Virus record (IMG/VR): IMGVR_UViG_3300045988_090463
Coordinates: 12,472 to 76,471 of that record
From: a virus
DNA: 64,000 nt
Strand: one strand, 5' to 3'
Positions 4,933 through 48,230 of the stretch are shown one piece after another. The stretch's first letter is position 1, and the number at the start of each line of letters is the position of its first letter. The position numbers and the translations under genes were made by a program. The notes beneath the pieces are model-generated. The model ran no database searches. It had not been told where the DNA came from and worked only from the letters and a program-made list of their open reading frames with translations.

Positions 4933-4936
4933 ACTA

Positions 4937-4965
4937 TTGAATTTAATTTGATTGTGGTGTAAAAT
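4937..4965 (+). promoter_or_regulatory. promoter for the cI-like repressor
   Basis: TTGAAT-17 nt-TAAAAT upstream of AAGGAGG-ATG 4993. The -35 overlaps an operator half-site. Confidence 0.5.
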
Positions 4966-4992
4966 ACTAAGTGTAAGGAGGATAAAATAATA

Positions 4993-5361
4993 ATGACAGA
5001 TGAGGAACAAAAGAGGATATTTTCAAACAACCTTAATAGGTATATTTTGAAAAGCGGGAAGCAACAAAAAGAAGTTGCCGAAGCCATCGGTGCAAACACC
5101 TCTACATTTAATATGTGGTGTAAAGGTAATTCTATGCCGGGCGCCGGAAAGATTAGGGCTTTGGCAGATTATTTCCGTATAGGGATGTCAGACTTAACAG
5201 ATTTGAAAGAGAAGCAAGATCCTGACATTGAATTCGGAGATGTAATTACAAAAATCGAGCAGTCAGACCCTCGTTTCAAAAGAATTATTCTTGAATACGA
5301 TAATCTGCCGCCCGACAAAAAAGATTTGCTATGTGATTTTTTTGAAAAATTCGTTTTTTAA
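4993..5361 (+). CDS. CI-like XRE-family repressor
   Basis: 122 aa. HTH segment KQQKEVAEAIGANTSTFNMWCKG. Divergent from the cro-like gene. Confidence 0.75.
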   Translation: MTDEEQKRIFSNNLNRYILKSGKQQKEVAEAIGANTSTFNMWCKGNSMPGAGKIRALADYFRIGMSDLTDLKEKQDPDIEFGDVITKIEQSDPRFKRIILEYDNLPPDKKDLLCDFFEKFVF

Positions 5362-5483
5362 GATGTAAGGGTGGGAATTATTTTCCTGCCCTTTCTTCGC
5401 TATATACTCTTTTTACGCATCCATAAATGAATTTTATCATTGATTCATTGTGTATCTTCTGTACCATCTCAATAATCTCTTTC

Positions 5484-5909
5484 TTATAATCCATAAATAA
5501 CCCTCCCAATCGAAACTTTACTACAGTATATGTCTGGGCAATGGGAAATATGATTTGAACATTTATTTTTATCATATTTTCCGTAAGTCCAATGAAACAG
5601 GACACATGGATTAATATTCGCCCTTGCAAACTGCCAGAGATAGACCGGAATATTTGTGATTTCAAATATGACCTTTACTTTCACAAATATAAAGTTCGTT
5701 TTTACCGGATTTTCTGTGATTTCTACAATATCGTTCGTTCTTAGAATCTCTTTTATGCTCTGGCTTAAAGTTGAATGCTTGCACATATCATCTGCCAAGC
5801 GGATGAAGCTTTTACGTAAATAATCTTGATTGCACATCGGCAAGTGAATGATGTAGCTTGCAAAGAAGATTACTCCTGCTGTGATCAGCAATCTCTCAAT
5901 CTTCCTCAT
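5484..5909 (-). CDS. hypothetical membrane-anchored protein (moron next to the repressor)
   Basis: 141 aa with an N-terminal TM segment LLITAGVIFFASYIIHL. Isolated minus-strand gene convergent with the cI-like gene. Confidence 0.4.
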   Translation of the reverse strand: MRKIERLLITAGVIFFASYIIHLPMCNQDYLRKSFIRLADDMCKHSTLSQSIKEILRTNDIVEITENPVKTNFIFVKVKVIFEITNIPVYLWQFARANINPCVLFHWTYGKYDKNKCSNHISHCPDIYCSKVSIGRVIYGL

Positions 5910-15673: not shown

Positions 15674-16702
15674 TCATTCCTCCCGTTTCTGTTTCACGCG
15701 GTTATACAAAATGTTCTGTGTCCTTTCTGTGAAGAACAGCCAGATACGATAATCGCAACCCATACCGTTATTCTTCCCAATGTCAGAGCCGAAATATTCG
15801 TCCATCATGTCCAGATAATACCCCGGCTCATCGTCCTCTTCGACTATTCCGTCTTTCACCATATCCAAGTCAGCATTTCGAATCATACTCAGGAACTGGT
15901 CAAGGTCATTTGCGTAGACTATCGGATGTCGTTCTCCTCGATACTGTTTGAACTTTTCAAAAAACTGTTTGACCAATGCCATAGTCAGGCAGATGTCGTG
16001 GTCTTCCAAAATATCTTCTTTGTCCCCGTACAGAGAATTAAATCCATTGTACAGGATTGTCGGTAGTTCTTCGTCTTTGTAATCGACAGAGCGATTCTTT
16101 TTCGCATGTGCGTACCGTTCCTGCTTCTGCTCTTTCGTTCTAGGTGGTATATTATTAATATTTATATTATTATTAAGAGCAGAAGTCTTTACTCCTTTAC
16201 CAGACGATGGTAAAGTCTTTTCCTCTGCACTTGATAAAGTACAGTCTTTATCTGTATCAGTAATTGATTTATCAGTAGTTGATATATCAGTTCTTTTATT
16301 ATGGGGGTGATGTTCTACCTCTGGGACTTCTAGGGCTAGGGTTTCTATACCTTGAAAAAAAGCCTCTTGATTATTGTTATTGTCAGATACCTCATGCGGA
16401 GTTTCGTAAATGTTATAAATGTACTCAAACTTAGATCGTCCCTCTTCTTTGCAAGGCTTTTTCTTATCCACAATAAGATACCCCGTTGCTTTTAACTCTT
16501 TTATGGTTGATTTCACTGCCGTTTCATTTTCCTTTAAAATTGCACATAACCCGGGAATAGAATAGTTCCAAGAATCCGGTAATGAAAACATTACAGATAA
16601 AAGCCCTTTTGCTTTTAAACTCAAATCCTTATCTCTAAGATGATGATTACTCATCAGCGTGTAATTCTTTGTTTTGTGTACTCTAAATACTGCCATAATC
16701 AC
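15674..16702 (-). CDS. winged-HTH protein of mobile-element initiator/regulator type
   Basis: N-terminus [43 protein letters not shown]. Asn-rich linker. 342 aa. Confidence 0.5.
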
Positions 16703-17421
16703 ACTGCCTCCCTTTCTGAATTATTAAGTGGAATTTCACTGAAATCTCGAAGTATATCTATTCCACTATGAAACAGTTCGGAAGAATCTTCTGTTTTGCA
16801 ATCTTCATTAAGAACCGGATTATTTTCAGCGATAAGTAATATTTCCAAAATGTTTGTATCTGCAATATTGTTCACTGTATAAAACATTACTCGGGTAATT
16901 TTTGCTGAGTTTTTTCGTTCCCTATAAGATGACGTGATTCTTTGCGATAAATCAATTGATTTTCCAATATATAAAATGGTATTGTCTTCGCCAATAAAAG
17001 CGTATATGCCATGAACTTTATACAAATTATCACACAAAAACAGCATTGATTCTATCGGAAAATCTTTACTACACTCAACGACATCTTCATTGTTCTTTTC
17101 TATAATGGATTCTCTCCATAATATCCGTGCATATGCGTCTTTATTTTTTGATATAAAGTCAGATACATCACCATATCGACTATTCTCATCAAATCTTTTG
17201 TATCCATAACAAGCCCGTGAAATTGCATTAGCATAATCAATTTGACGAACACTCGCTTTTTTCCAATTGCATTTTTTATATTCCTCTTCGTGTTCTCTGA
17301 TAAATTCACTGACATCATAATAACTATCGCTTTCACTAAAAGCTGCTTCAATATTCAGCGCATCAGCAATTGCTCTGGCAAATTTTAATTGTCTTGGGGA
17401 AACTAATTTTCGACCGTTCAT
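16699..17421 (-). CDS. GIY-YIG nuclease with a duplicated N-terminal domain
   Basis: GIYAFIGEDNTILYIGKS...R...E motifs. Start MNGRKL follows GGAGG. N-terminal repeat is SPRQLKFARAIADA / SVRQIDYANAISRA. Confidence 0.7.
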   Translation of the reverse strand: MNGRKLVSPRQLKFARAIADALNIEAAFSESDSYYDVSEFIREHEEEYKKCNWKKASVRQIDYANAISRACYGYKRFDENSRYGDVSDFISKNKDAYARILWRESIIEKNNEDVVECSKDFPIESMLFLCDNLYKVHGIYAFIGEDNTILYIGKSIDLSQRITSSYRERKNSAKITRVMFYTVNNIADTNILEILLIAENNPVLNEDCKTEDSSELFHSGIDILRDFSEIPLNNSEREAV

Positions 17422-17479
17422 ATAGATAACCTCCATGTCGTTAATGTGTGACTGCCTTGTAGCCACAGATCCATGATTT

Positions 17480-17541
17480 ATAAAAACAACAGGCAGGTGC
17501 ATCATGGAATTGCACTTGTCCCCCGTCGGGTTAGCCTGTTG
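17480..17541 (-). promoter_or_regulatory. second leader hairpin plus U-tract
   Basis: CAACAGGC...GCCTGTTG followed by TTTTTAT, about 60 nt before the GIY-YIG start. Confidence 0.4.
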
Positions 17542-23913: not shown

Positions 23914-24207
23914 CTAGTCTTCTTTGCTTGCCTGCTTTACGATCTGATTTACATAATTACTAAGTCCTGCAACGAGGATTCCCTGTGTGATTGCGGTAAA
24001 AATTGCCATTGCGATTTCCTGCGCGCCAGATATAGCGCATGTAGCAATAACATAAATTCCACAAATCAGAATGCCTAAAGCACCAAGGATTGCCGGGATA
24101 TATTTGTCCGGTATGACTTCGGACTTTTTAATACCCATTCCGATAAAGTACAGTACAACCGCAACAATAAGAAGTTCCGGTTTCACGTAATTCATAATCT
24201 GCTCCAT
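23914..24207 (-). CDS. holin-like membrane protein (three TM segments)
   Basis: 97 aa. KPELLIVAVVLYFIGMGIKK...IPAILGALGILICGIYV...ITQGILVAGLSNYVNQIVKQ with a charged C-terminus. Confidence 0.55.
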   Translation of the reverse strand: MEQIMNYVKPELLIVAVVLYFIGMGIKKSEVIPDKYIPAILGALGILICGIYVIATCAISGAQEIAMAIFTAITQGILVAGLSNYVNQIVKQASKED

Positions 24208-25795: not shown

Positions 25796-27649
25796 TTAAT
25801 ACCAATATCCTAACGCCTTGCCTTTGTCATAGACAGCTTTTGCTACTATTTGATAGTACCAGTAATTCCCATGAACAGAATCACTTCTTAAGCAAGATGG
25901 AATAGTGCCTTTTTCAATAAGTGCCTTATCATCTTCCGAAGGGGTGATGTTTGCACCGATGCTGTTTGCGTAAGCAATTCCATTTTTACAGATATAATCT
26001 CTTATATTCAAATAATTAGCACCAAATTCAGCATAAAATTCTTGTTCTCTGACAGCATTTCCACTTGATGTTCCTGTTGGTAACGATATCACAATATGTT
26101 TTTCATTACACATAGATTTTGCTCTATCTTTTGCACTTCCTTGCGTGATGTATTTACCATCATGCAATGGTGCATCATTCTGCCCCATCCAAATGATTTT
26201 GATAGCATTATCAAACTCTTTGTAGGCATTAGTTATGATTGGAGTTCTACAAACAAGAGTTTTTTCTTCTCCATTTTCTTTTCGTGTAAAGTAATAAGCA
26301 AATGTAGAACCTTGCACTGTTTCTCCTGTATCGGGGTCTGACTGTCCACTTGAAATTAAGGTTCTTGTAATTTTTCCTTCGATGCCGCCAATAGATACAG
26401 GATTTACTCCACTATGGACATCATCAACTGCAATGTTGTAAGAAAGGTTATCTTTGAGATAAGTCCATGCGTTTACAGTATTATCCCAAAAATAATCCTG
26501 TTCCTGTCCATGTAAGTAAATCCTTACTGCTGTAATCTCCGCTGGAATTGTAAATGGTTCTGCACAAATTTCATTGTGCCCGCTTCTAGCGGAAATCATC
26601 CAAGATGGTTCACCGCCAACACCTAAATTGATAACCGGTTTGTTTAACATTCTGCTTAATATACTCGGGTATGAAGTGTCTTTATTTACATCACTACTCG
26701 GTTTTCCTCTGTCACTTCCAGTACCTTGTGTTAGTGAATCACCCCAACACACAATTTTTTCTTCTTTAAGATTTTCCTCTGATTGCAAATAAAGTATTTC
26801 AATACTATTATCAGATATAATATTTATACCATCAAAATTATTTAATAGACCACCAACACCGTGTTGAACATCACCAACGAACGAACTATAGCCAGTAGAT
26901 ATATTTTCTTTATTTACGAAGATGTTATACCACTCTATTGCAGAATCTATTAATACAGTACCGTTTAAATTTGCATAAAACATAAATACTAAATAGGTGT
27001 CTGAATTTAAAATGAGCTTTGTCACCGAGCTTTGTTTATCCATCGAAAGCTGAATACTTGAATATTGATTGTGCGTTATATTACCATCCTTATCGCATAA
27101 AGATATATAAATAAATCCTATGTTTCCTGTTGCAGATCCGCTTAATAGTTTAAATGAAGAACCACACATATACGTCCCGGCCTTTAAAAATATAGGTTTA
27201 GACGTTATTTGTTTAAACTTTTCACCTGCTTTCACGGTAGCACTTAATTTATCTTTCACAGCAGTTATATTTGATAATGATGCTGAAAAACCTTGTATGC
27301 CAACATCTGCGATACAAGGAAACATATTTTTATAATAAGACATGACACGACTGTCTGTTTCGCTGTTCCATTTTATTTTAGATAATGGTTTCAAATTATT
27401 AAAATCAGAGCCATTGTTCCTGTATAATGTACTGAATGAACCAACAAAGTCGTTTAATTCACCTATGTCTTCCTTTAGTGAATCAGTTTCTGTCTTTACT
27501 TCCTTAAATTTGTCCCCTACTACTTTGGAGTCGGCAAATGCTCCCTCGACGCTCAAAGTTTTATCTGCGATAGGCTTGTCTGCTAAGCCTGGATACCCAA
27601 TTGGAATATCTCCGTTTTGAGTATGGATTTTTAAAATTGATCCTGCCAT
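25796..27649 (-). CDS. fibre-like protein with an SGNH/GDSL hydrolase domain
   Basis: N-terminal fibre motif KTLSVEGAFADSKVVGDKF. GDSL block IVCWGDSLTQGTGS. 617 aa. Confidence 0.7.
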   Translation of the reverse strand: MAGSILKIHTQNGDIPIGYPGLADKPIADKTLSVEGAFADSKVVGDKFKEVKTETDSLKEDIGELNDFVGSFSTLYRNNGSDFNNLKPLSKIKWNSETDSRVMSYYKNMFPCIADVGIQGFSASLSNITAVKDKLSATVKAGEKFKQITSKPIFLKAGTYMCGSSFKLLSGSATGNIGFIYISLCDKDGNITHNQYSSIQLSMDKQSSVTKLILNSDTYLVFMFYANLNGTVLIDSAIEWYNIFVNKENISTGYSSFVGDVQHGVGGLLNNFDGINIISDNSIEILYLQSEENLKEEKIVCWGDSLTQGTGSDRGKPSSDVNKDTSYPSILSRMLNKPVINLGVGGEPSWMISARSGHNEICAEPFTIPAEITAVRIYLHGQEQDYFWDNTVNAWTYLKDNLSYNIAVDDVHSGVNPVSIGGIEGKITRTLISSGQSDPDTGETVQGSTFAYYFTRKENGEEKTLVCRTPIITNAYKEFDNAIKIIWMGQNDAPLHDGKYITQGSAKDRAKSMCNEKHIVISLPTGTSSGNAVREQEFYAEFGANYLNIRDYICKNGIAYANSIGANITPSEDDKALIEKGTIPSCLRSDSVHGNYWYYQIVAKAVYDKGKALGYWY

Positions 27650-27659
27650 GAACTACCTC

Positions 27660-27992
27660 CTAAAAAATAAGTACACCATCATCATTTACAGTTGGCAAAA
27701 TAGGGTTTTCATTCAAATAATCAGATATAATTTCTTTTACCTGTTCTTCCGTGATGTCACCGATTGACCCAAGTGAATCCCATGAGGTTCCATTCCACAC
27801 AACATTCATTCCTGCGCCACCGTAAATTGATTTTTGCTCAATATTGTACATATCGCCAACAGACGGACTCAAAGGAAGTAGATCGGATGTCACTACACTG
27901 CCTTTGTATAGAATTGGATATTTTAACTTATTTTCCATATTGCTTACTTTACTAAGCAAAAGTGCGTATACTTTTTTTGCTGTTAATGCCAT
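27660..27992 (-). CDS. small fibre-associated protein
   Basis: Motif VGDMYNIE...GMNVVWNGTSWDSLG. Confidence 0.4.
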   Translation of the reverse strand: MALTAKKVYALLLSKVSNMENKLKYPILYKGSVVTSDLLPLSPSVGDMYNIEQKSIYGGAGMNVVWNGTSWDSLGSIGDITEEQVKEIISDYLNENPILPTVNDDGVLIF

Positions 27993-27996
27993 GTAA

Positions 27997-28245
27997 TCAG
28001 CCTCCTAATTTGTACCATGTATCAGTTGGTTTGTGATATTCGTATAATTCGGACGTATCAAGACATAATGCTGATGAACCGCTTTGTACGTAATGTGGAA
28101 GTTTCGCCACGTCCTTTGACAGCCCTTCATAATCACGAACCATACCTCTTGCATCCGTACACACCCAACTGCCTAAATCCGGCAACTCGTCGCCAGGATT
28201 ATACTTGATGCCGTCGAAAATAACTGTGTTTTCTGCTTTTGCCAT
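27997..28245 (-). CDS. hypothetical protein (82 aa)
   Basis: Abuts both neighbours. Confidence 0.4.
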   Translation of the reverse strand: MAKAENTVIFDGIKYNPGDELPDLGSWVCTDARGMVRDYEGLSKDVAKLPHYVQSGSSALCLDTSELYEYHKPTDTWYKLGG

Positions 28246-28632
28246 CTATGCAATCATCCTTTCTGCCCCAACAGGAGCTACATAAGTGAATTTGTTCCCT
28301 AATATATCTCTGGCTGTACCAATGACAAATTGTCCGTAGTCTGCCAGAATATTGCACACAAATTCCTCTGCATCCACCCAGTATTGCTTCTTGACCATGT
28401 GGTGAAGTTCTGGTAACAGACCGTAGCTGAACATCACGCAATGCCCTAATTCATGGATAAACACACGGTTCAGAAGTTCCCCATATAGATTATTTGCAAT
28501 CGAAATTGTCATTGTGGAATAATCCGATACCGCAAGTGTTCTCTGCCCTGTACGGTCAATCAGAACATCATCATGGGGAGAAACAAAGTGAACTTTCCAT
28601 AAGTCCCCATTCATGTAAAATTGTCTTAGCAT
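28246..28632 (-). CDS. HExxH zinc metallopeptidase-like protein
   Basis: FIHELGHCVMF motif. 128 aa. Confidence 0.55.
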   Translation of the reverse strand: MLRQFYMNGDLWKVHFVSPHDDVLIDRTGQRTLAVSDYSTMTISIANNLYGELLNRVFIHELGHCVMFSYGLLPELHHMVKKQYWVDAEEFVCNILADYGQFVIGTARDILGNKFTYVAPVGAERMIA

Positions 28633-28710
28633 GGTTTATCACCATCCTTTTCTCAAATAAAAAGTCCCTGTCACATTTCTGTAACAAGGACTAAATTTAA
28701 TTCTTATTTG

Positions 28711-29337
28711 TTAATTCATCTGCTGTATCAGACGAGTTAAGTCAGTTTTCATCGACTGCCTGAGTGTTGCGTCTGCATCTGACCACATCTCTGTAAGATT
28801 ACGGATAATGTCAGATGTATACTCTTTCATGGAATCATCCATTTTTCTCTTAGATTCTGTATCATTGGAATCATGGTAATGCCTGCGATTCTCACTGTAT
28901 CTGTCATAGCTTTCGCCATATCTGGACTGCTTATGGTTCATTCCATCCATTCTCATATCACTACGATCTGGATGATAACCCATGCGGTACATATTACGTT
29001 CAAACTCTGGATTGTTCAGATACTCTTCCATCCAGTCATCATCTTCCATGTACAAATATGGTTTATATCCCATACGACTTCCTTTGCCTTTCGGGGCAAA
29101 TCTTCCATTGGAATAACGATACCTGTCATATCCCATGCGTCCAAGATACTTTTCTTCCTGTTCACATTCGTCCATAGCTTCTACGATTCTGTAATCCTTA
29201 TCTGCACAAATCGCACACTTTACGGATTCCATGCAGTCTTTCAAATCGTCCCAGTCTTGAGCGCTGAGATTATCAAAGCCATGTGTTTTGGCTTTTTCCA
29301 TAGCCCATTTTCCCATTTCCATTGCAACTTTATGCAT
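28711..29337 (-). CDS. low-complexity Tyr/Arg/Asp/Met-rich protein with three RMGY repeats
   Basis: GRMGYDRYRY, SRMGYKPYLY and YRMGYHPDRS. 208 aa. Confidence 0.5.
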   Translation of the reverse strand: MHKVAMEMGKWAMEKAKTHGFDNLSAQDWDDLKDCMESVKCAICADKDYRIVEAMDECEQEEKYLGRMGYDRYRYSNGRFAPKGKGSRMGYKPYLYMEDDDWMEEYLNNPEFERNMYRMGYHPDRSDMRMDGMNHKQSRYGESYDRYSENRRHYHDSNDTESKRKMDDSMKEYTSDIIRNLTEMWSDADATLRQSMKTDLTRLIQQMN

Positions 29338-29762
29338 TACAGTGCCCCCTTTCTAACAGCCTGTGTAACAGGTGCTTCTGTCGTTGGGGCTGTACCATTA
29401 ATTGCTGTCAAATTGTTGCTCGGACTACAAGCCGGATTTCCTAACATCTTGAATACTCCGCCAGTTGCACTTGTAGCTACTCTGGTTGCGTACTTCGTTC
29501 TGGTTCTTATTCCACAAGCCGTAATCTGTGCACAGCAACGATTCTCTAGCGGATACAAAGTTGTTCCTGTTCCTATCTGAATCATTACCGGAGCAGTAAT
29601 TGTAGTGGCTTCTGGTATACTTTGTGCAACAACAATACAATATTTCTCTCCATTGTTGTAACTGCCTGCTGGGAGTGTGATTACAAGATTACCTCCTGTA
29701 AACGCAACAGCTTGGCTTATTACAAGACGGTTGCAGAGCTTACAAACATTTTTACAACTCAT
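29337..29762 (-). CDS. Cys-rich protein (141 aa)
   Basis: Start MSCKNVCKLCNRL. Further Cys residues at RCCAQITAC. Confidence 0.45.
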   Translation of the reverse strand: MSCKNVCKLCNRLVISQAVAFTGGNLVITLPAGSYNNGEKYCIVVAQSIPEATTITAPVMIQIGTGTTLYPLENRCCAQITACGIRTRTKYATRVATSATGGVFKMLGNPACSPSNNLTAINGTAPTTEAPVTQAVRKGAL

Positions 29763-29840
29763 ATTTCTACCTCTCAATCAAAATAAGAGGTGAGCCGTAA
29801 CCCACCTCTTAGAATTAGTCAACCTCTAAGGGTGAGTTAC

Positions 29841-30650
29841 TTAGCAACAACCGTTGCCATATGTATTACATCCTGCGTATGCATATGGAGCTGGAACCTG
29901 GAATGCAGGAATCGGAGCCGGGTTGATTGCATTGATTAATCTCTGAGCCTGTGCGTACATCTCTGTTGTAAGCAATGCGGACTGACGATCCTGAGATGCA
30001 GCACGTTTCAGATCAGAGTTCTCTGCCTGTAATGTTGCAATCTTATCGTTAGTCAGGAAGTCAAGGATTGCTCTTGTGTTGCTGTTCTGGTTTTCCAGAA
30101 GGTCTCTGGTGTTGTTGTTCATTGTGTTCTGGAGAGCACAAGTGTTGGTAGCAAGGTTGTAGTTGATACCCTGTATAGCTTCTCTTGTTTCACAGCAACA
30201 GTTTGCTAACTGAGACTGTAATGCGTTGGTATTCTGCATACCGGCTACAGTATCAGCATTGATAGCCTGCTGAACGCCGTTGAAGCCTTGAAGCATTCCG
30301 ACATTCATGCCATTAAAGCCACTCTGCATGGTATTGTTAAGAGAATATGTGCTGTCACAGATACCCTGCTGAATACCTCTGATACCATTCTGAATATCAT
30401 TAAGGGCGAATTCCTCATTAATATCTGAACGGGTAGCCCATCCTTGGAAGCCGGCACCGTTCGCACCGTTTCCACCATTGCCACCGAAGCCGCCGCCCCA
30501 GCCGCCAAAACCTCCCCATCCAAAGATAGCAAAGATCAAGACAAGCCAGATAAGTGAAAAGCCATCACCGCCCCACATATCATTGGCGCGATTATTAGAG
30601 CCTGTAGCGGCAGCAATGTCGCTAAGACTGTAATTAGAACCATTCATCAT
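29841..30650 (-). CDS. membrane-anchored Gly-rich / Asn-Gln-rich protein with a Cys-rich C-terminus
   Basis: TM segment FSLIWLVLIFAIFGW, then GGFGGWGGGFGGNGGNGANGAG, a long N/Q helical region, and an end at AGCNTYGNGCC. Confidence 0.5.
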   Translation of the reverse strand: MMNGSNYSLSDIAAATGSNNRANDMWGGDGFSLIWLVLIFAIFGWGGFGGWGGGFGGNGGNGANGAGFQGWATRSDINEEFALNDIQNGIRGIQQGICDSTYSLNNTMQSGFNGMNVGMLQGFNGVQQAINADTVAGMQNTNALQSQLANCCCETREAIQGINYNLATNTCALQNTMNNNTRDLLENQNSNTRAILDFLTNDKIATLQAENSDLKRAASQDRQSALLTTEMYAQAQRLINAINPAPIPAFQVPAPYAYAGCNTYGNGCC

Positions 30651-30746
30651 GTTTTTAGTCTCCTTAAATATTATTTACAATAGGAGACATCCGCGGCTGT
30701 CGTCCCAAATTGTAGCGATTTTTAATCACCCAATTATGGGGAAGTG

Positions 30747-30992
30747 TTATAATCCAAGGAATTTCTGGATAATTCCATCTGGAGATAAATGTTTTTCATT
30801 GAATACATTTTGTTGTATTTGATGTAGCTGGTCTGCATCACCTTTTTTATATAAATCCAAAGCATTTTTCAATGTTGGATTGTTTCCTGCAAATTTACTC
30901 ATGTCGTTCATCATGTTGTCAACACTTCCGAACCTCTGAGAAATCATTTTCTCGAATTGCTTTTTCATCATAGCGTTTGGGCTGAAATTCAT
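30747..30992 (-). CDS. hypothetical protein (81 aa)
   Basis: 4-nt overlap with the upstream gene. Confidence 0.45.
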   Translation of the reverse strand: MNFSPNAMMKKQFEKMISQRFGSVDNMMNDMSKFAGNNPTLKNALDLYKKGDADQLHQIQQNVFNEKHLSPDGIIQKFLGL

Positions 30993-31495
30993 CTCTGCTT
31001 ACCTCCGTTCTGCTGTTTTGCAGGCTCCGATGTTCCCGATATAAATGTCGGAAACATGTCTTTGATTCCAGAAATTTCAGCACATACATCGTTTCGAAGC
31101 TGATTAATCATAGCAACTAGATCAACCTGCTTTGGTTCTTCCTGTTGCTGCTCTGCTTCTGGATTGACAAGTCGGTAAACAAAAATTTTGCTTCTTCCGT
31201 CTGCTTGTAATTGTTTTCTGTAGACTTCTGTACCATCTGTTTTTGGATAATAAACAGGATTTCCAGACATATCTACATCTTTTGCTTTTACAGTATCAAT
31301 GCCATCAACCATCTGCCCTTGAAGCATCGGCATTTGCTGCATTTGTTGTACAGGCTGCTGCATCTGCATTTGTCCATATGGCATTGCCTGTTGATAGTTA
31401 TTCTGTAATTGTGCCAACCTGTCTTGATACGGCTGTATTTGTCCGTAAGGGTTGCTCATCATTGGCTGTTGCGGATAATACGGATAACCTGCCAT
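30989..31495 (-). CDS. protein with a Q/P/M/Y-rich prion-like N-terminus
   Basis: Start MAGYPYYPQQPMMSNPYGQIQPYQ after AGGAGG. Confidence 0.5.
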   Translation of the reverse strand: MAGYPYYPQQPMMSNPYGQIQPYQDRLAQLQNNYQQAMPYGQMQMQQPVQQMQQMPMLQGQMVDGIDTVKAKDVDMSGNPVYYPKTDGTEVYRKQLQADGRSKIFVYRLVNPEAEQQQEEPKQVDLVAMINQLRNDVCAEISGIKDMFPTFISGTSEPAKQQNGGKQR

Positions 31496-31650
31496 AATCT
31501 GTTCCTCCTGTCCGGGATTCAAGAATCATATCCATATCATCTATAGAACGATGCTTTTCCCATATGCCCTCGTAAGGGTTTCTTAATATAATCATTACGT
31601 TTTCTCCTATGATTATATTATATAGGAAGGAACGCTGTATTTGAACGTCA

Positions 31651-31905
31651 CTATTTCGCCACATTTCCGCCATTATACAAAGAAAAGCCCCGAATATACA
31701 TCGGGGCAACTTTGGCAATTTTTTGCTTTATTTTTTTATTGATTCGGTCTATGGTTCTGGGACTGTATTCCATTAATTCAGATGCTTCCAATAATGTTTT
31801 TTCGTCATAAGCCCGTAATCGAAATAATTTTTCTTCGCGTGAATCAAAACCTGCTTCTTGCAAGTAAAATTTTCTTTCATCTTCTGAAAAATCTGCATAA
31901 TTCAT
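31651..31905 (-). CDS. small sigma-region-4 / LuxR-GerE-like HTH protein
   Basis: The pattern SREEKLFRLRAYDEKTLLEASELMEYSPRTIDRINKKIKQKI. Confidence 0.5.
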   Translation of the reverse strand: MNYADFSEDERKFYLQEAGFDSREEKLFRLRAYDEKTLLEASELMEYSPRTIDRINKKIKQKIAKVAPMYIRGFSLYNGGNVAK

Positions 31906-31944
31906 ATAACTCCACCGTCCTCCCTTACAAGTGGAATCAATTTG

Positions 31945-32256
31945 TTACATAGGAAATACACCGCTCAACATAAATCCTACAACTGCTCCCACGACTGCCG
32001 TTATAATGCATACAATAATAGTGTCATAACGTTTGCCAGGGACTGCCATGAGGATTTTTAAATTGTTGTTCATTTCATCGACTGTTTCTTTAATATGATC
32101 TAAGTCATTGCTATACAGGGCGGTCTTCTGTTCGAGCTTATTAATTCTTGAATAAAATTCTTTGTGCCTTTCAGACTGCTTTTCCTGCATATCATGAATA
32201 CTTTTTTCAATTTCTTCGAAGCGGTGATTGTTAAAGCACTCATGTTCACATCCCAT
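31945..32256 (-). CDS. XhlA-like protein (coiled coil plus C-terminal TM)
   Basis: 103 aa. Heptad region, then IIVCIITAVVGAVVGFMLSGVF. Same architecture as PBSX XhlA. Confidence 0.55.
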   Translation of the reverse strand: MGCEHECFNNHRFEEIEKSIHDMQEKQSERHKEFYSRINKLEQKTALYSNDLDHIKETVDEMNNNLKILMAVPGKRYDTIIVCIITAVVGAVVGFMLSGVFPM

Positions 32257-32367: not shown

Positions 32368-32694
32368 TTAACTCAAACTTCCAGCAAAAGGAAAAACACC
32401 ATGATTAATATAAATTTCGGTTTCAGATTCCCAACTTCTATTTACAGAAGATTCAGAATGTGATTCTTGGAACTCAGCCCCCTGCTTCACAAGAAAATAG
32501 AGGGCTAAATCAAATATGCAATCATAGCATTTTTCCATGTCACTATCTATTTTTTCATTTGTATAACTTAAAGGATAGTTTCTCTTATTCTTGAACGAAC
32601 GAATTGCCCGTTTTACGGCAAGAGAAATCATTTCAGGTGGTTCTGTGTCATCGGTCAGATAGTTTGCCAAATCGTTTATAAGCTCTTCGTTCAT
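32368..32694 (-). CDS. head-tail connector (gp6-like) protein
   Basis: 108 aa. Lies downstream of the capsid gene. Typical N-terminus is LINDLANYL..D. Confidence 0.55.
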   Translation of the reverse strand: MNEELINDLANYLTDDTEPPEMISLAVKRAIRSFKNKRNYPLSYTNEKIDSDMEKCYDCIFDLALYFLVKQGAEFQESHSESSVNRSWESETEIYINHGVFPFAGSLS

Positions 32695-32704: not shown

Positions 32705-32809
32705 CTACCCTTGCTGAACTAATATTTCAGAAATGATACCAGCCTTATTTGTTGAGGTCAGGGCATAGCCATTATCACTTGCAAGCTGTCTTAACTGTGG
32801 TACAGTCAT
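32705..32809 (-). CDS. 34-aa SAP/HeH (Rho_N-like) mini-ORF
   Basis: Product MTVPQLRQLASDNGYALTSTNKAGIISEILVQQG. Its frame is open upstream into the capsid gene 3' end. Confidence 0.3.
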   Translation of the reverse strand: MTVPQLRQLASDNGYALTSTNKAGIISEILVQQG

Positions 32810-32907: not shown

Positions 32908-33945
32908 TTATTCCCCCGCTTTGGTACCGATTACGATACCGCCGTTAGCTTTTGGTGCAACAGGAACGAACATGCCGGATGCTTTTGTCCATACTGCAAC
33001 TGGATCCTGTGTAGCCCACATGGAAAGTGTTACGAAAGAACGATTTTCTTCCTGAATGAACTGTCTGTATTCAAGTTCCTCTGGTGTAACACCCCAGAGT
33101 CCGGTACCGAAAGAACCATTTGCTTCGGATTCGTACAGGGTAAATACATCTTCCTTGAAGTATCTGCCGGTTTTCAGCGTTCCATCTGCTTTTCTGTATC
33201 TGAATTTTTCATCACAGCGATCAATAGTAAAACCATATTCCTGCATGATGAGATTTACAAGTTCCTGCTTTGTCAGGAGTCGTTTGTTTGCTGCTCCCAG
33301 AACCGCTGTCTGCATAGCAGTGTTATTTCTCATGTAGTTAATCATCTTGAGGGATGTAAGTGCTTTGTTTACAACAAAACCGTTGTCCTCTGCGACTGCT
33401 ACCATCTTCTGAATGTCGCCCATGATGTCCGCATCTGGTTTAGACCAGTCCGTAAGAGCGACCTTTGCACCAGTCGGTACGCCGTAATCAATATTCAGAT
33501 CTACATTGTTCTCTTTGACTTTTACGGCACCTGTAGAAAGGAACTGTCCTTTCATAACATTCGCTCTGGCAACAACACCTTCAAAAAGGTTAGCTGCATC
33601 ATCAAATACAAAGTTTTTCAGTGCTTCATTATCCGGCACACCGTTTTCAATTGCCTGCTGTAATCTTTCGGACTGATTGATTTTTCTCTTAATAAAGAGT
33701 TTTTCAGTCAGAACTTTTTCGAAGCCCGGTCTTGTTCCGATTTCTGCTTCAGTATCAAGCGCATGAACGAATGCCACTTCTGGCAGTCTCTGTCCAGCCA
33801 TAAGTCTGTAGTATTCAGCTTTCAGGTACTGAGTTTTAACATCTGGAAAAATGGTATCAAGGATACCAGGTCTTTTAACACTGAAATCCTGAGAGAAGTT
33901 AAGTCTTTCTTCCTGTGTAATTGATTCTAATACATTAAATGGCAT
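32908..33945 (-). CDS. major capsid protein (lambda gpE-type)
   Basis: 345 aa. Follows a gpD-like gene and the scaffold. Confidence 0.8.
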   Translation of the reverse strand: MPFNVLESITQEERLNFSQDFSVKRPGILDTIFPDVKTQYLKAEYYRLMAGQRLPEVAFVHALDTEAEIGTRPGFEKVLTEKLFIKRKINQSERLQQAIENGVPDNEALKNFVFDDAANLFEGVVARANVMKGQFLSTGAVKVKENNVDLNIDYGVPTGAKVALTDWSKPDADIMGDIQKMVAVAEDNGFVVNKALTSLKMINYMRNNTAMQTAVLGAANKRLLTKQELVNLIMQEYGFTIDRCDEKFRYRKADGTLKTGRYFKEDVFTLYESEANGSFGTGLWGVTPEELEYRQFIQEENRSFVTLSMWATQDPVAVWTKASGMFVPVAPKANGGIVIGTKAGE

Positions 33946-35128: not shown

Positions 35129-36616
35129 CTATTCTTCACCAGTGGAAGAAATTGTTGCTGATTGATTTTGAATTGATTTCTGACTAAAATCTTTAATCAA
35201 TTCTTGTGCTTTCTTCATTTCTGCGTCTGGGTTTGCCAGTTCGGGATAAACAGTTCCAAGATATGGTAAGCTCATTTCATATACCTTTTGCGGATCGCTG
35301 AATAATCCACAAGTAATCAATGCAATAAGCGGGTGAATTTTATTCTTGAACAGATAATCAAGTGCCTGTGCTTTAACAAGCATGTTATCTGTTGGGTTTC
35401 TGGTGATTTTGACATCAAAATCTCTGGTAGAAATCTTGACATCATTGGAGGTTTTGCGAATGATGTTGAGAATAATTCTGACAGAAGCTTTTTCGGCTTC
35501 TTTTGTGAATGCTTCAACAAGTTTGGCATCTCGCTCTGCAAAATCCCATCCATTACGTAAATATACAGCATTACCAGTATCACCACCGGTGTTGCTCTGG
35601 CGGTTTGGCATTGCTTCTACAATCAGCATATTATTGTAAATGTCGTCTTTAGCAACTTGGCTCTCCGACTGGTTTAATTCCGCAGTCATCAAGTCAACAT
35701 CTGACTGAACACCGTTTCCAGCATCTTTTACAGATATTGCTCCTAGCTTGACCATTTTCAAAAATTCATTCTCGTCAACTTCACAGTTTTTGAATTTCAT
35801 AAATGCTTGAACAAACTGTTCAACACCGTTTAATCTATCCGACTGATACTTGTTGATCGCATCAAATGCTGTAATTGCAATTTCGACATCAGATAGCCGG
35901 TCATGGTTGTTTGGATACTCGATAATTGGGATTCCGCCAAAGCCATTAATGCCGCTGACGGTTACTTGTCCGTTCTTTATCTTGAAATATTGATTTGAAG
36001 AATAGCAAAGATAATATTGCTGATTCTCTTCATCTTTCAATATTTGAACAGATAGCATTGCTTTTCCTGTGTTTCTGGAATAAACAATATAAACATCTCC
36101 CGGATACGGAATAAAAATTCTAAATGGTGGTAAATCACGGTCTTTTGTCCAATCGTCTTCTCGTAGAATTGCTTTGTATGCAGTTCCTACGGCACTCTGG
36201 TATATTCCAAGCTGAATATTTCGGGCATCCGCATTTGCTTCGTCCAGATAATCATTCAGCAGGTCGACCTGCTCATTTATCTTTTTATCTGCTTTTTTCT
36301 TTTTGCAGACATATTGAATAGGTTCTCCATATATTTGTCCTGCCTTAAACTTGACAACTTCCAGAGCGTGATTTTCGACAACTCTGTTATTTACTTCCGG
36401 TCTCACAAGCTTTTCCCGATATAAGATTGGTTGGTCGCCTTTGTAGTACCGATAAAGATAATTAATCATCATTCTGTTTCGATTATGTGTGCCAATCGTA
36501 TCAGATAGAACTTGAACAACATTTTCGGTAGTAATTTGAGCTACGCCAGTGTAGGCAGTTTTTCTGCCAAAATCGCCTTGGCATAGGTCAACAAAATTGC
36601 TTTTGTTTCTTCCCAC
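35129..36616 (-). CDS. portal protein
   Basis: 495 aa. GTG start 8 nt after AGGAGG. Lies between the terL region and the scaffold. Confidence 0.8.
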   Translation of the reverse strand: MGRNKSNFVDLCQGDFGRKTAYTGVAQITTENVVQVLSDTIGTHNRNRMMINYLYRYYKGDQPILYREKLVRPEVNNRVVENHALEVVKFKAGQIYGEPIQYVCKKKKADKKINEQVDLLNDYLDEANADARNIQLGIYQSAVGTAYKAILREDDWTKDRDLPPFRIFIPYPGDVYIVYSRNTGKAMLSVQILKDEENQQYYLCYSSNQYFKIKNGQVTVSGINGFGGIPIIEYPNNHDRLSDVEIAITAFDAINKYQSDRLNGVEQFVQAFMKFKNCEVDENEFLKMVKLGAISVKDAGNGVQSDVDLMTAELNQSESQVAKDDIYNNMLIVEAMPNRQSNTGGDTGNAVYLRNGWDFAERDAKLVEAFTKEAEKASVRIILNIIRKTSNDVKISTRDFDVKITRNPTDNMLVKAQALDYLFKNKIHPLIALITCGLFSDPQKVYEMSLPYLGTVYPELANPDAEMKKAQELIKDFSQKSIQNQSATISSTGEE

Positions 36617-44100: not shown

Positions 44101-44102
44101 AA

Positions 44103-44185
44103 CGGTGCATCCGTGATTCGAACACGGACAACATTTCTGTTGGAAGACTTAGCAAGTCTCTCTGTTACCATTACAGCAATGCACC
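44103..44185 (-). tRNA. tRNA-Ser (GCU), type II
   Basis: Hand-folded: acceptor GGTGCAT/ATGCACC, D-arm CTGT-AATGGTA-ACAG, anticodon loop TTGCTAA, long variable arm CAACA-GAAA-TGTTG, T-arm CCGTG-TTCGAAT-CACGG. Confidence 0.8.
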
Positions 44186-44263
44186 ACTTAACTAACCAAA
44201 TCTGATTTTATTGTATCGTCAAAAAATCAAAAAAAACGGTGGGAACCTTATTCGCAAGAGCTA

Positions 44264-44288
44264 CGCCCACAAGTGGAATCGAACCACT
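44264..44288 (-). ncRNA. orphan tRNA 3' fragment (T-arm plus 3' acceptor strand) fused to a terminator hairpin
   Basis: AGTGG-TTCGATT-CCACT then TGTGGGCG. No matching 5' acceptor strand within 300 nt. GTGGG...CCCAC followed by T8. Confidence 0.3.
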
Positions 44289-44521
44289 ACGCTGCACCTA
44301 ACTCGCTCCGTATGTTTTATATAAGAAAACCAGAAAGAAAACCACTTCTCTATCCTGCTATACACTGTTTGGAAGAACCATTTCAAGCACGTTCACTTAT
44401 TGACTACTAGAGGAAATTCACTTTGCCGATAAGTAATACATACTCGGAACTCGGCCAACATTCTGCCATGTATTACCCTGTGCTTTTCCTACCACCAAAC
44501 TTTCAGTCTCCAAACAGTGAA

Positions 44522-44605
44522 TGGGAGAAGATGGAGTCGAACCATCCGAACCACAATGGCAACAGATTTACAGTCTGCCCCGCTACCTCTACGGAATATT
44601 CTCCC
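44522..44605 (-). tRNA. tRNA-Tyr (GUA), type II
   Basis: Acceptor GGGAGAA/TTCTCCC, anticodon arm GCAGA-CTGTAAA-TCTGT, long variable arm, T-arm GATGG-TTCGACT-CCATC. The D-arm is slightly irregular. Confidence 0.75.
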
Positions 44606-44919
44606 AAAACCCGGATTCCCGGGTTAGCAATATGTTTATCGTGTTATGCTTTCCACTAGGCTGTTTTATGCTGTGTCAGTCACACAGAGTTGTTTCGGAT
44701 ATTATTATGCCTTTTTGGGCTATTTTATGCTTCTTGAAAACTCCCTTGTCATCAATGCGCGCTTGTGATGGCTTATTGAAACTAAGAAACATTCATCGGA
44801 CGGGAAATCAGATCAAGCACAAGCCTATGCCGTTACATATCTTTGCTCATTCTGATTCACATACGCTCATCCGAAAGTTTTTTCTGCCCATAAAACGGAT
44901 GGGCAGCATATGGAAGAAA

Positions 44920-44992
44920 TGGAAATTCTGAGATTCGAACTCAGGACTTCCCGGTTATGAGCCGGGCGTTCTAACCACTGAACTAAATTTCC
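44920..44992 (-). tRNA. tRNA with a CAU anticodon (elongator Met or Ile2)
   Basis: Acceptor GGAAATT/AATTTCC with a G1-C72 pair, D-arm GTTC-AGTGGTTA-GAAC, anticodon arm CCCGG-CTCATAA-CCGGG, T-arm CTGAG-TTCGAAT-CTCAG. Confidence 0.85.
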
Positions 44993-45214
44993 TGAGTAGA
45001 AAATATTACCAGCACCTCAAAGCCATATTTTCTACTGTTGCGATTCTTTGCCACCAGTCGCAACAAAGGCTCCCTTTTTTGGTTTTGCTGTCACCTATAC
45101 GGGAATCCCATCCGGGACGTTTGAAGCCCCTTTAGGCAGCTCCGTTGAGCTAGATGGGTATCGGAGGGTCTATGTGAAATAAACCATTGCCAGGTACATG
45201 CGCAACCCGACAAA

Positions 45215-45286
45215 TGGGGCTAGTGGGATTCGAACCCGCGAATACAGCAGTCAAAGTGCTGTGCCTTACCACTTGGCGATAGCCCT
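45215..45286 (-). tRNA. tRNA-Gln (UUG)
   Basis: TCGCCAAGTGGTAAGGCA D-region, anticodon arm CAGCA-CTTTGAC-TGCTG, T-loop TTCGAAT. A1:C72 and one C:A mismatch in the T-stem. Confidence 0.7.
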
Positions 45287-45565
45287 AAAATCTTTCTCCC
45301 ACTCCGCACCATTACAAAAGCAGGAGAAAGAATTGTGTGTGATATAATTACTATTTCTGCAATGCAAACAATATATATGTGGAGAAAATCGAATTTAATA
45401 TAATCGACTACAGAAATTTTTTTACACTAAGTTGGATGTAAAGAATATTTGCTTGCGTACCGCTCCACAATCGGGCAAGCGTATCCTTCCGGTTTGATTA
45501 TAGGTTTAACCCGTTCTATGATAAAAAACGGAATAATCCTCGCAGGAAATGCTAAAAGCATATTT

Positions 45566-47063: not shown

Positions 47064-48230
47064 TCACACCGCCTTTCTCGGACGGCCTTTCGCCATTTTA
47101 GGAGTATTCAATGCTTCTTCTACAGTCATGCCTTTTTGATTATGCCTATAATTAAATGTTTCTACAGAAATTCCGTATTGCTTACAAATATCAGATTTCG
47201 GTACCATTTCCCCTCCGAACAAAATCATCGCCGTCTTTTTCTTGTTTTTTCGTTTCTTCCATTCGGAAGGAGGTCTTTTATTTTTCTGTTGTTCAACATT
47301 AGTAATCCATCGGCAATTGTTGGGTTCATAATTTCCGTTTACGTCTATTCTGTCAATCGTGCATTCTCCAAACGGAGCATTTTCATCATATCCATGTTTA
47401 TAGGCCCATTCTTTGAATATCGAATAGTCATGCCATTCATCGCATAATTTAATTCCACGTCCGCCATAATTGTAATAGTTAGAAGCAGTAATGGACTCGC
47501 ATCTTCGCTTTATATCCTGCCACACATGATACAGGCGATCATTACTTCCACCATGGGTTCGGCTAGAATCACTATGACGACATCCACAACTTTTTACCAT
47601 CCCTGAAACTAATTCAATCGGTCTTACGTTCTTAATATTCCCGCAATCACACCGGCATTTAAACCTTTTAATTTCACCAGGATCATTTATTCCTATCACC
47701 GTTAGGAAACCAAAATGTTTCCCGATATAAGTTCCATCGTATTTAATATTCGAAAAATGTTTATGGCACTTCTGATCTTTCCACTTCCCTGCATGCATCA
47801 TGCTAAAAGAAACATCTTTAAATGCTCCGCATTCTCTACAAACCATACGAATCTTAATAGGATTCTGTTCTATTATTTTTGAAGCAGTGTAATCTCCATA
47901 CTGTTTCCCTATTTCGGATTCAAGTAGGTCTTTTTTAATTTTTCGAGATTTTTCAAGCTCTGCATTTCGTCTTTTCTTTCGACATTTAGGACATGCCTTT
48001 ATAAGTTCACTCCATTTATTTCTGCCTTTTATCATTCCTCTCTGGATTTCATTTCCGCATGTAACGCATTTAAGTTTAACTACTCTGGCTTTAGTATATG
48101 GATTGTATGAAATATCAATAATTTTGTAGTCACCATTTACTGTGCCAATACGCTTTTGATAATATTCAATCATTTGAGAAATATTTTCTTTGCTAATTCC
48201 GTATGAAACTAACTCTTCTACGCTGTTCAT
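47064..48230 (-). CDS. multi-zinc-ribbon protein with a C-terminal HNH-like / AP2-like DNA-binding module
   Basis: Several CxxC pairs. C-terminal RLYHVWQDIKRRC...YGGRGIKLCDEW...TIDRIDVNGNYEPNNCRWIT..EQQKN. Confidence 0.45.
   Translation of the reverse strand: MNSVEELVSYGISKENISQMIEYYQKRIGTVNGDYKIIDISYNPYTKARVVKLKCVTCGNEIQRGMIKGRNKWSELIKACPKCRKKRRNAELEKSRKIKKDLLESEIGKQYGDYTASKIIEQNPIKIRMVCRECGAFKDVSFSMMHAGKWKDQKCHKHFSNIKYDGTYIGKHFGFLTVIGINDPGEIKRFKCRCDCGNIKNVRPIELVSGMVKSCGCRHSDSSRTHGGSNDRLYHVWQDIKRRCESITASNYYNYGGRGIKLCDEWHDYSIFKEWAYKHGYDENAPFGECTIDRIDVNGNYEPNNCRWITNVEQQKNKRPPSEWKKRKNKKKTAMILFGGEMVPKSDICKQYGISVETFNYRHNQKGMTVEEALNTPKMAKGRPRKAV

Follow-up and report, generated by a model that had tools for sequence, protein, structure and literature searches.

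A conserved, co-directional and portable cassette of eight genes in virus IMGVR_UViG_3300045988_090463

Genes and signals of the cassette

The window analyzed here, a 64,000-nucleotide stretch of viral DNA (positions 12,472 to 76,471 of the IMG/VR record IMGVR_UViG_3300045988_090463), contains at 28246-32256 a block of eight minus-strand open reading frames (ORFs) that encode, in the order of transcription, an XhlA-like membrane protein, a helix-turn-helix (HTH) protein, and the proteins QP, S81, G269, cys146, RMGY208, and HExxH128. We show that this block is one conserved, co-directional, and portable cassette, the core of which consists of QP, S81, G, and a small beta protein, and which is usually headed by a membrane protein of the XhlA/BhlA type and an HTH protein resembling sigma-70 region 4. 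An earlier note, made from the sequence alone, had flagged these eight ORFs as unusual; all of them were found on the minus strand at the coordinates listed below, and the peptides quoted for them are present in the translations: YPYYPQQPMMSNPYGQIQPYQ, WGGFGGWGGGFGGNGGNG, the GCNTYGNGCC end, MSCKNVCKLC...RCCAQITAC, three RMGY repeats, and HELGH. The genes and signals of the block are as follows (aa, amino acids; MFE, minimum free energy).

31945..32256, minus strand: XhlA-like membrane protein (xhlA103), 103 aa, first gene of the cassette; N-terminal coiled coil and C-terminal hydrophobic segment
31651..31905, minus strand: hth84, sigma-70 region-4-like HTH protein, 84 aa; model matches below the cut-offs
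31687..31707, minus strand: terminator-like hairpin and U tract, overlapping the 3' end of hth84
31617..31645, minus strand: sigma-70-like match TTCAAA-17-TATAAT upstream of QP; 10/12 consensus matches
30989..31495, minus strand: QP protein, 168 aa from ATG 31495; Q/P/Y/M-rich N-terminus, small conserved domain, and helix
30747..30992, minus strand: S81 (p81), 81 aa, Met/Asn/Gln-rich, immediately before G269
30651..30746, minus strand: S81-G intergenic region, nearly invariant; most columns at least 95% in 33 unique sequences
29841..30650, minus strand: G269; N-terminal hydrophobic segment, Gly/Trp/Phe-rich linker, N/Q-rich helix, and Pro-/Cys-rich end
29778..29840, minus strand: G-CYS spacer, almost invariant, with a hairpin at 29784-29811; MFE -35.5 kcal/mol, z = -6
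29337..29762, minus strand: cys146, 141 aa from ATG 29762; basic, beta-rich, with N-terminal CxxxCxxC and a CC motif
28711..29337, minus strand: RMGY208; helical ends, Arg/Tyr/Asp/Met-rich centre, and conserved NGRFAPKG
28663..28692, minus strand: terminator-like hairpin after RMGY208, 13-bp stem and U tract; MFE -32.1 kcal/mol, z = -7.8
28246..28632, minus strand: HExxH128, small protein like gluzincin-type metallopeptidases; HELGH and a downstream Glu

Conservation and order of the cassette

Each gene of the block was detected by tblastn in 76-81 of 81 loci selected with G269. This first comparison was biased, as its loci were picked by G similarity, and it was redone with 80 loci selected by the portal; among the 61 that reach far enough, each block gene occurs in 57-60, at the same place. 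Since the block ORFs were recovered in both the G-selected and the independently portal-selected loci, they are real genes rather than chance ORFs.

The wider family was explored at several levels. G269 has more than 600 relatives in IMG/VR, most of them on gut contigs of approximately 80 kb. A genome scan with the family alignment added 80 further loci (23-94% identity), the majority of which come from Lachnospiraceae, Oscillospiraceae, and other Clostridia. Iterated hidden Markov models (HMMs) were run over the six-frame ORFs of 166 loci and found the G family in 166, QP in 153, S81 in 129, the family of cys146 (CYS) in 120, and a second family (J) in 35, in constant order. In the per-locus maps this order reads: an XhlA- or BhlA-like transmembrane (TM) protein where present, HTH, QP, S81, G, and a small beta protein. 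The distal part occurs in two variants: (i) variant A, found in the window, with RMGY and HExxH proteins, and (ii) variant B, with small helical proteins and a ferritin-like protein, the latter identified by PDB profile search (E 2.4e-4). The eight-gene co-directional order is repeated in more than 150 loci, does not change even where the G proteins are no more than 23-60% identical, and invariably runs in the direction of the flanking late genes.

Median identities in the portal-selected loci, where the portal itself stands at 87.6%, are 95% for S81, 94% for the capsid protein, 92.6% for G, 92.3% for CYS, 88% for RMGY, 87% each for HExxH and HTH, 80% for QP, 75% for the XhlA-like protein, and 73% for the scaffold. 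G269, cys146, and S81 are about as conserved as the major capsid protein.

The description of the block in the earlier note as a discrete unit with its own small HTH gene is borne out, as co-occurrence among relatives revealed strong synteny of the block genes in a conserved ordered cassette that includes hth84. Its view that the proteins are unlike canonical virion or lysis components also held: none of the eight matches a head, neck, connector, or ejection family in PHROG or Pfam, and the PDB profile searches for such families were negative. Their PHROG matches are limited to families annotated as unknown function, 'hemolysin', regulator, or peptidase. QP, S81, G269, cys146, and RMGY208 match PHROGs of unknown function or nothing, and in Pfam, PHROGs, and NCBIfam they hit no model for head, neck, ejection, lysis, or spore-coat proteins. 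With neither head, neck, or ejection homology in the proteins nor scattering of their genes among relatives, the proposal of a novel module with its own regulator stands. Our literature search found no account of the cassette or its families.

Proteins of the cassette

G269, the hallmark protein, belongs to phrog_16490 (1.5e-65) and contains eight Cys; CCC at 151-153, an ASQ..Q motif, and the terminal Cys are invariant. Among 110 diverse members of the family, 95% score above a KD15 of 1.6 in a hydrophobic segment near residue 31 (median KD15 2.1; approximately 31-45 in G269); a median of 12 Cys follow this segment in the same 110 members, and Lys makes up approximately 1% of residues. The AlphaFold2 (AF2) model of G269, built from a 68-sequence alignment, has an overall predicted local distance difference test (pLDDT) score of 57.7 and consists of a disordered Gly-rich linker ahead of a helix of approximately 120 residues, modeled as helices 124-218 and 220-242 at pLDDT 73-89. 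A Foldseek search of BFVD with this model returned nothing.

An exhaustive G profile search yielded 3,068 clusters at 50% identity (1,702 at E <=1e-10), nearly all of them stand-alone proteins of 200-300 aa; at 90% identity the family comprises at least 7,954 clusters. Among the matches listed, no homologue carries a Pfam domain or an informative name, and a searched plasmid collection gave two weak matches only. A distant branch of the family is represented by phrog_9288 (HMM E 2.9e-8), in which the CCC and the C-terminal Cys are kept.

Several G-family members carry specific names in public records. 'Tail fiber protein' is attached to fragments of 41 and 34 aa in phage SuperGirl (4459-4738 of locus L249), and 'putative sugar-binding protein', 'spike protein/glycoprotein', and 'outer capsid protein/viral fiber' are attached to members in KarlJaspers (3695-4396 of locus L167) and cr116_1 (4866-5762 of locus L166). 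These labels appear to be artefacts of coiled-coil or compositional likeness. An identity of G with influenza HA2 or a 'spike' was rejected, the HA2 profile matches being non-significant (E 0.15 or worse); this profile resemblance accounts for the 'spike' labels on the crAss homologues. G shares with HA2 and other class I fusion proteins a hydrophobic segment rich in Gly and, after it, a long helix rich in N/Q, but it lacks a C-terminal anchor and any significant profile or fold match, and the resemblance is compositional only.

The likely true start of cys146 is ATG 29762. Its family comprises at least 4,787 clusters at 90% identity, has no Pfam match, and adjoins G in 120/166 loci; in a profile search of the CYS family, the best 120 matches listed share 69-96% identity. 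The AF2 model of cys146 (50-sequence alignment) is all-beta at pLDDT 50. The protein has no PDB, Pfam, or fold match, and Foldseek against PDB gave nothing usable. In the 35 loci that lack CYS, the slot after G is occupied by the second family of approximately 140 aa, J, and the two never overlap. The J family is BclA_C: 10/27 members match PF18573 (best E 2e-7), and BclA chains of Bacillus anthracis are the top PDB matches. An assignment of cys146 itself to BclA_C found no support, as 0/29 CYS members match this domain and the PDB profile search returned no BclA.

For QP, ATG 31495 is the likely true start, with AGGAGG 7 nt upstream. The protein (QP177) matches phrog_21718 at 1.7e-17, has no Pfam or PDB match, and always lies just upstream of S81/G in the loci that carry its family. 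A likeness of QP to GerQ was an impression that found no support in Pfam or PDB. S81 matches no family in PHROG or Pfam. In the Clostridium perfringens phage CPD1 (5630-6253 of locus L083) a gene for a 207-aa HNH/AP2-like protein lies between S81 and G; it is absent from phage HMD-PC1 and has a homologue in the window at about 47157-47726.

xhlA103 matches two PHROGs annotated as 'hemolysin' of the XhlA type (phrog_937, 6.5e-12; phrog_1193, 6e-8) and has no Pfam XhlA match at E <0.1; its hydrophobicity peaks at residues 79-97 (KD19 2.71), and weak coiled-coil-type Pfam matches cover residues 10-70. XhlA- or BhlA-like genes for TM/coiled-coil proteins lie upstream of the HTH gene in many relatives. 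hth84 matches TIGR02937 (E 8.3e-7, 28.8 bits, cut-off 42.9), phrog_36 (2.8e-5), and PF04545 (E 0.005, 16.7 bits, cut-off 24.1), and has weak SigF/SigG matches (E 0.03-0.09); its positional homologue in bajarodcaudo virus 5 (L084) scores 26.7 with PF04545, above the cut-off. A member of the HTH family precedes the core in many loci. hth84 is a putative activator of the cassette or of late genes.

In the RMGY208 alignment, R74, G78, and R79 are invariant, and the family occurs in 92 loci, where it is paired with the HExxH gene. The motif GR[FY]AP[KR] is found in RMGY208 (residues approximately 70-85; 29100-29130) and twice in a DUF7841 protein (10271-11065 of locus L252) that occupies the RMGY208 slot in a common prophage; the R/M/G-rich tails of the variant-B ferritin-like proteins are similar in composition, without the exact motif. 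GR[FY]AP[KR] is possibly a docking motif. Homology of RMGY208 to the 131-aa helical protein of variant B was rejected (hhalign probability 0.2%).

HExxH128 matches phrog_1233 at 4e-9; in its family alignment H60, E61, and H64 are invariant and E90 nearly so. It has no Pfam match, and its best PDB matches are the minigluzincin MJ1213 (E 0.011), WLM (0.06), and IrrE (0.17). With minigluzincins, WLM, and IrrE/ImmA it shares HExxH and a downstream Glu in a protein of approximately 110-130 aa, whereas the E-values are only 0.01-0.2 and the fused or adjacent repressor of ImmA/IrrE is lacking. HExxH or 'PolyVal' peptidases occupy an equivalent relative position in crAss-like and Bacteroides phages.

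Intergenic spacers and hairpins

The terminator-like hairpin at 31687..31707 has an almost invariant stem and U tract and a variable loop in 52 unique relatives. Of the consensus promoter match downstream of it (31617..31645), the -10 region is kept in at least 80% of relatives and the remainder is poorly conserved. The S81-G region forms the peak of nucleotide identity (0.985, in the loci chosen by G) and has a fold z of -2.7; an Rfam search of this region and of the whole block gave no match. The G-CYS spacer permits alternative pairings, namely the terminator-like hairpin versus a structure that sequesters the ribosome-binding site of cys146, and CYS expression may thus be coupled to translation of G via this spacer. 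The two spacers that flank G269 are more conserved than any nearby coding sequence, with nearly every column at 95% or above in 33-42 unique relatives.

A hairpin with a U tract after G recurs across diverse loci (z < -2 in 21/33), and the stem of the hairpin at 28663..28692 is conserved in relatives. A candidate spacer motif, a small hairpin plus UGAUU, was discarded: it had 13 matches versus 10.45 in shuffles and blends into ordinary terminators made of a hairpin and a U tract.

Genomic location and host range

In the window the cassette lies, as the earlier note had it, between the presumed connector and neck genes; most other phages carry it elsewhere than between head and neck, usually behind fibre or lysis genes where the late operon ends, or beside recombination genes. 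The following locations were observed: (i) in bajarodcaudo virus 5, where the late operon closes with it, behind holin and endolysin, and where all eight parts keep their order, the TM/coiled-coil protein and the HTH among them; (ii) in a very common prophage, after Amidase_3 and holin, with the cassette ending at the prophage edge; (iii) in Dulem virus 36, after a receptor-binding protein; (iv) in the C. perfringens phages CPD1 and HMD-PC1, after lysis genes and an antirepressor, just before Gam/RecT; (v) in the Bacteroides phage C3_41T2LP, where RecT/RusA genes are followed by G, four hypothetical genes, and a 'PolyVal metallopeptidase'; and (vi) in a crAss-like phage, between the small terminase and capsid genes, with holin and an L,D-carboxypeptidase 1.5 kb upstream. 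The 'spike protein/glycoprotein' of the crAss-like phage is a full-length G member (HMM E 1.5e-54; phrog_16490), which is followed by a Cys-bearing beta protein, a small R/Y/E-rich protein, and an HExxH protein. Of 150 neighbouring ORFs on the upstream side, taken from approximately 50 diverse loci, 17 belong to endolysin/amidase PHROGs, the commonest class that could be identified.

The phrog_9288 branch is present in 220 records of enterobacterial phages (T1-, Seuratvirus-, and T5-like). In the two records examined in full, one T1-like and one T5-like, the gene stands just after the lateral tail-fibre genes, and in the T5-like Escherichia phage SuperGirl the G-like gene is fragmented. The G family is also carried by viruses of Methanomassiliicoccales.

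In Lachnospira intestinalis CLA-AA-H89B (8386-9184 of locus L087, NZ_JBBMFS010000001.1), an element with a related cassette is inserted inside the host sigG. Of the interrupted gene, next to ylmC/ymxH, only SigG model positions 97-257 are left, with stop codons directly upstream, and the related cassette begins about 270 bp from the break. The arrangement resembles that of skin-like intervening elements, here in a gene for a sporulation sigma factor.

Genes around the cassette in the window

Every gene surrounding the block is on the minus strand, and transcription runs from the portal through the capsid gene, the block, and the neck-like genes to the tail genes. The neighbouring features, in this order, are listed below.

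35129-36616, minus strand: portal, SPP1_portal match 5e-72
between portal and capsid gene, minus strand: scaffold-like gene, then a 114-aa head protein
32908-33945, minus strand: major capsid protein, Phage_cap_E
32368-32694, minus strand: 108-aa ORF (p108), the 'gp6-like connector' of the earlier note, directly before the eight flagged ORFs
25796..28245, minus strand: two small ORFs (p82, p110), then a 617-aa SGNH/GDSL protein (SGNH617); variable slot 3' of the cassette
after the SGNH protein, minus strand: ORFs of 139, 172, and 159 aa, with the earlier 'head-closure/neck' label on 25679-24745
23914-24207, minus strand: holin, between the neck-like genes and the tail-tube gene
after the holin, minus strand: tail-tube protein, then tape measure

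Neither p108 (32368-32694) nor the neck-labelled ORFs (25679-24745), which include p139, have a Pfam, PHROG, or PDB match; the names 'connector' and 'head-closure/neck' reflect only where these genes lie, past the capsid gene and ahead of the tail-tube gene.

The variable slot lies outside the conserved module: p82, p110, and SGNH617 were found in 31, 34, and 11 of the 81 G-selected loci, all three ORFs vary in the portal-selected relatives, and SGNH617 is missing from all 61 portal-selected loci. SGNH617 (25796-27649) has PHROG tail/tail-fibre matches and a C-terminal SGNH/GDSL esterase domain with GDSL Pfam matches. Lysis-type genes are scattered in the window, namely the holin (23914-24207), the XhlA-like gene (31945-32256, minus strand), and an endolysin-like gene (555 aa; 7816-9483) at the far end of the tail module.

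Three further observations concern the window outside the cassette. A small unlisted ORF at 32705-32809 on the minus strand, between the capsid gene and the 108-aa ORF, encodes MTVPQLRQLASDNGYALTSTNKAGIISEILVQQG, which by eye resembles a motif of the Rho-N/HeH type. Directly 3' of the tape-measure gene, at 15674-17505 (minus strand), lie genes for a replication-initiator/DnaD-like protein (342 aa) and an endonuclease-like protein (268 aa); this pair inside the tail module probably represents a mobile insertion. At 44102-45287 (minus strand) there is a cluster of four tRNA genes (Ser-GCT, Tyr-GTA, Met-CAT, and Gln-TTG).

Discussion

The explanation that we favour, at a probability of roughly 0.35, is that the cassette encodes a late-made, membrane-anchored stalk-and-knob assembly that acts at the cell envelope, outside the virion, the remaining proteins being helpers, a peptidase, and a regulator. 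A place outside the virion is suggested by the hydrophobic segment in 95% of G proteins, the varying position of the cassette, which includes non-structural regions, the fragmented gene in SuperGirl, and the endolysin neighbours. The stalk and the knob are suggested by the long G helix in the AF2 model and by the alternation of BclA_C proteins with CYS after G.

The assembly could be built as follows. G269 would be inserted in the host cytoplasmic membrane via its single N-terminal hydrophobic segment, and its helix of approximately 120 residues would oligomerise into a coiled-coil stalk of approximately 17 nm. The Cys-rich end of the stalk (CCC and the C-terminal Cys cluster) would be joined, by disulfide or by a bound metal, to a small Cys-bearing beta protein. 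In the virus analyzed this protein would be cys146, and other phages would use a trimeric BclA_C/C1q-like knob instead. Helper or matrix functions may fall to the Met-rich S81 and to QP, the HExxH protein may process a component, the HTH may drive expression, and the G-CYS hairpins may set the ratio of G to CYS. Late in infection, the assembly would remodel the envelope of the infected cell, for egress or for exclusion.

Several points weigh against this explanation. QP, S81, G, CYS, and RMGY have no functional anchor, either experimental or by homology, and a contact between G and CYS is suggested only by the neighbouring genes and by the Cys that both proteins contain. Overall confidence is low in both AF2 models (cys146 pLDDT 50, G269 58). 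The topology of G is ambiguous: the family has fewer K+R ahead of the segment (0.5) than behind it (2.1), a weak argument for a C-terminal domain in the cytoplasm, and in the enterobacterial homologue the segment is only weakly hydrophobic and Gly/Ala-rich (KD15 1.45). With no signal peptide on cys146, the entire complex may reside in the cytoplasm. CYS could not be linked to the J family by homology (hhalign probability 9%). Finally, a virion fibre would account equally well for the capsid-level conservation, the head/neck position in the window and the crAss-like phage, and the recurrent placement beside fibre genes.

Such a fibre is the main rival, although we regard it as somewhat unlikely. 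The cassette would then encode a fibre or decoration on the head, neck, or tail, with G as a trimeric coiled coil, cys146 or BclA_C as its knob, QP and S81 as chaperones, and the HExxH protein acting in maturation. The long single helix of the G model and the trimeric tips that BclA_C/C1q-type domains typically form would suit this role, as would the conservation of G, CYS, and S81 at the level of the capsid protein and the terminator hairpins after G and RMGY, which are like those behind abundant structural genes. The cassette stands among structural genes in the window, where an SGNH tail-fibre-like gene is a neighbour, and in the crAss-like phage, and it directly follows tail-fibre or receptor-binding protein genes in T1-like and T5-like phages and in Dulem virus 36. 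However, the C. perfringens and Bacteroides phages place it by recombination genes, outside the structural module, and in the very common prophage it comes after the lysis genes at the prophage edge. A membrane-grade hydrophobic segment in 95% of the G family, the decay of the G-like gene in a T5-like phage, and the lack of any match to PHROG head or tail families also count against a virion component.

We consider it rather improbable that the cassette is a lysis accessory, in which it would extend the holin-endolysin set, with the XhlA-like protein and G timing or completing envelope disruption and G being i-spanin-like or membrane-active. The first gene is indeed XhlA-like, the upstream neighbours that could be identified are most often endolysins and genes of the XhlA/BhlA type, and the crAss-like phage encodes a holin and an L,D-carboxypeptidase 1.5 kb upstream; yet the holin and the endolysin-like gene of the window are far from the cassette, and T1-like phages hold G away from their lysis genes. 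The same two-sidedness is seen on comparison with the PBSX lysis cassette (xhlA-xhlB-xlyA): the XhlA-like first gene and the many relatives with the cassette directly after holin and endolysin recall it, whereas in the window both lysis genes are elsewhere and the other seven genes of the block have no known lysis counterpart. The i-spanin Rz of phage lambda combines a membrane segment at its N-terminus with an extended coiled coil and with cysteines at functional positions. The hydrophobic segment 31-45, helix 124-242, and eight Cys of G269, with conserved Cys throughout the family, match this architecture and nothing more: there is no sequence relation and no lipoprotein-like ORF in or beside G, the G protein is 2-3 times richer in Cys and contains a Gly-rich linker, and most hosts are Gram-positive, without an outer membrane. 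Conservation of the G motifs over Gram-positive, Gram-negative, and archaeal hosts with very different envelopes, and the apparently cytoplasmic cassette proteins that lack a lysis analogue, further reduce the appeal of a lysis role.

The likeness to spore-coat or exosporium proteins suggested in the earlier note has a partial basis. In the Bacillus cereus group, the BclA nap consists of a collagen-like stalk with a trimeric C1q/TNF-like BclA_C knob on a Cys-rich basal layer. The cassette resembles it in the stalk-plus-knob logic, in the BclA_C protein after G in 35 relatives, and in the Cys-rich partners; it differs in that a separate polypeptide, one with a membrane segment, would form the stalk as an alpha-helical coiled coil instead of a collagen repeat, that the cys146 of the window is not detectably BclA_C, and that the G family reaches phages of non-sporulating hosts. 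The part of the suggestion that survives is the BclA_C protein in the slot of 35 relatives, together with the sigG-interrupting element; the part that does not is any such identity of the window proteins, as cys146 is not demonstrably BclA-like and no Cot, GerQ, or CotJ match was found. The exosporium flavour is a real but indirect echo. As for the idea that the cassette interferes with sporulation, its proteins mimicking or joining the coat or exosporium layers, the Cys-, Tyr-, Gln-, and Gly-rich compositions, the BclA_C protein, the ferritin-like protein of some variants, the predominance of Clostridia among hosts, and the interrupted sigG of one related element all lend it some colour. It is nevertheless very improbable and unlikely as a general function: the window proteins match no Cot, GerQ, CotJ, or GerE model (E up to 0.1), cys146 fails every test of BclA likeness, and G occurs with the beta and HExxH proteins in crAss-like and Bacteroides phages, and G also occurs in enterobacterial phages, including those of Escherichia coli and Salmonella, and in viruses of Methanomassiliicoccales. 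The presence of the family in these non-sporulating hosts argues against a sporulation-specific role.

That the block is no unit at all, only unrelated morons or decayed genes piled up at a head-neck recombination hot spot, is hardly credible despite the hypervariable region directly downstream (p82, p110, SGNH617) and other insertions inside the structural module of the same phage, as it is contradicted by the synteny data, namely the constant order at 23-60% G identity, the capsid-level conservation, and the nearly invariant spacers. With morons and lysogenic-conversion cassettes the block shares portability, a frequent location past the lysis genes at a prophage edge, its own small regulator, and terminator-like hairpins, whereas eight genes in fixed order, conservation at capsid level, and the presence in apparently virulent crAss-like, T1-like, and T5-like phages set it apart.

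A broader proposal, speculative and taken as a whole unlikely, is that the cassette is a widely shared and so far unrecognised viral machine that serves a gut-specific problem such as exclusion, adhesion, or egress. This machine would be an analogue of the exosporium nap: a coiled-coil stalk, anchored in the membrane and cross-linked by Cys or metal, would bear a small trimeric knob of beta structure, and helpers and a maturation peptidase would be devoted to its assembly; the machine would be displayed on infected cells or on particles, by viruses of Clostridia, Bacteroidota, enterobacteria, and gut methanogens.

Among the homologues listed, neither the G family nor its CYS partner has a Pfam domain or a name. 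The G family is among the best-conserved genes of an abundant human-gut phage family of approximately 80 kb and spans Gram-positive, Gram-negative, and archaeal hosts. A cassette of eight genes in fixed order that reaches so far and to which no function can be assigned represents a sizeable portion of viral dark matter. The cassette is directly testable because cultured carriers exist: the T1-like coliphage KarlJaspers (E. coli K-12), the C. perfringens phages CPD1 and HMD-PC1, and the Bacteroides phage C3_41T2LP. If the cassette encodes a virion fibre, this would correct the misleading labels 'spike glycoprotein', 'sugar-binding protein', and 'tail fiber protein'. If it encodes the stalk-and-knob assembly at the envelope, it would represent a new class of late phage function.

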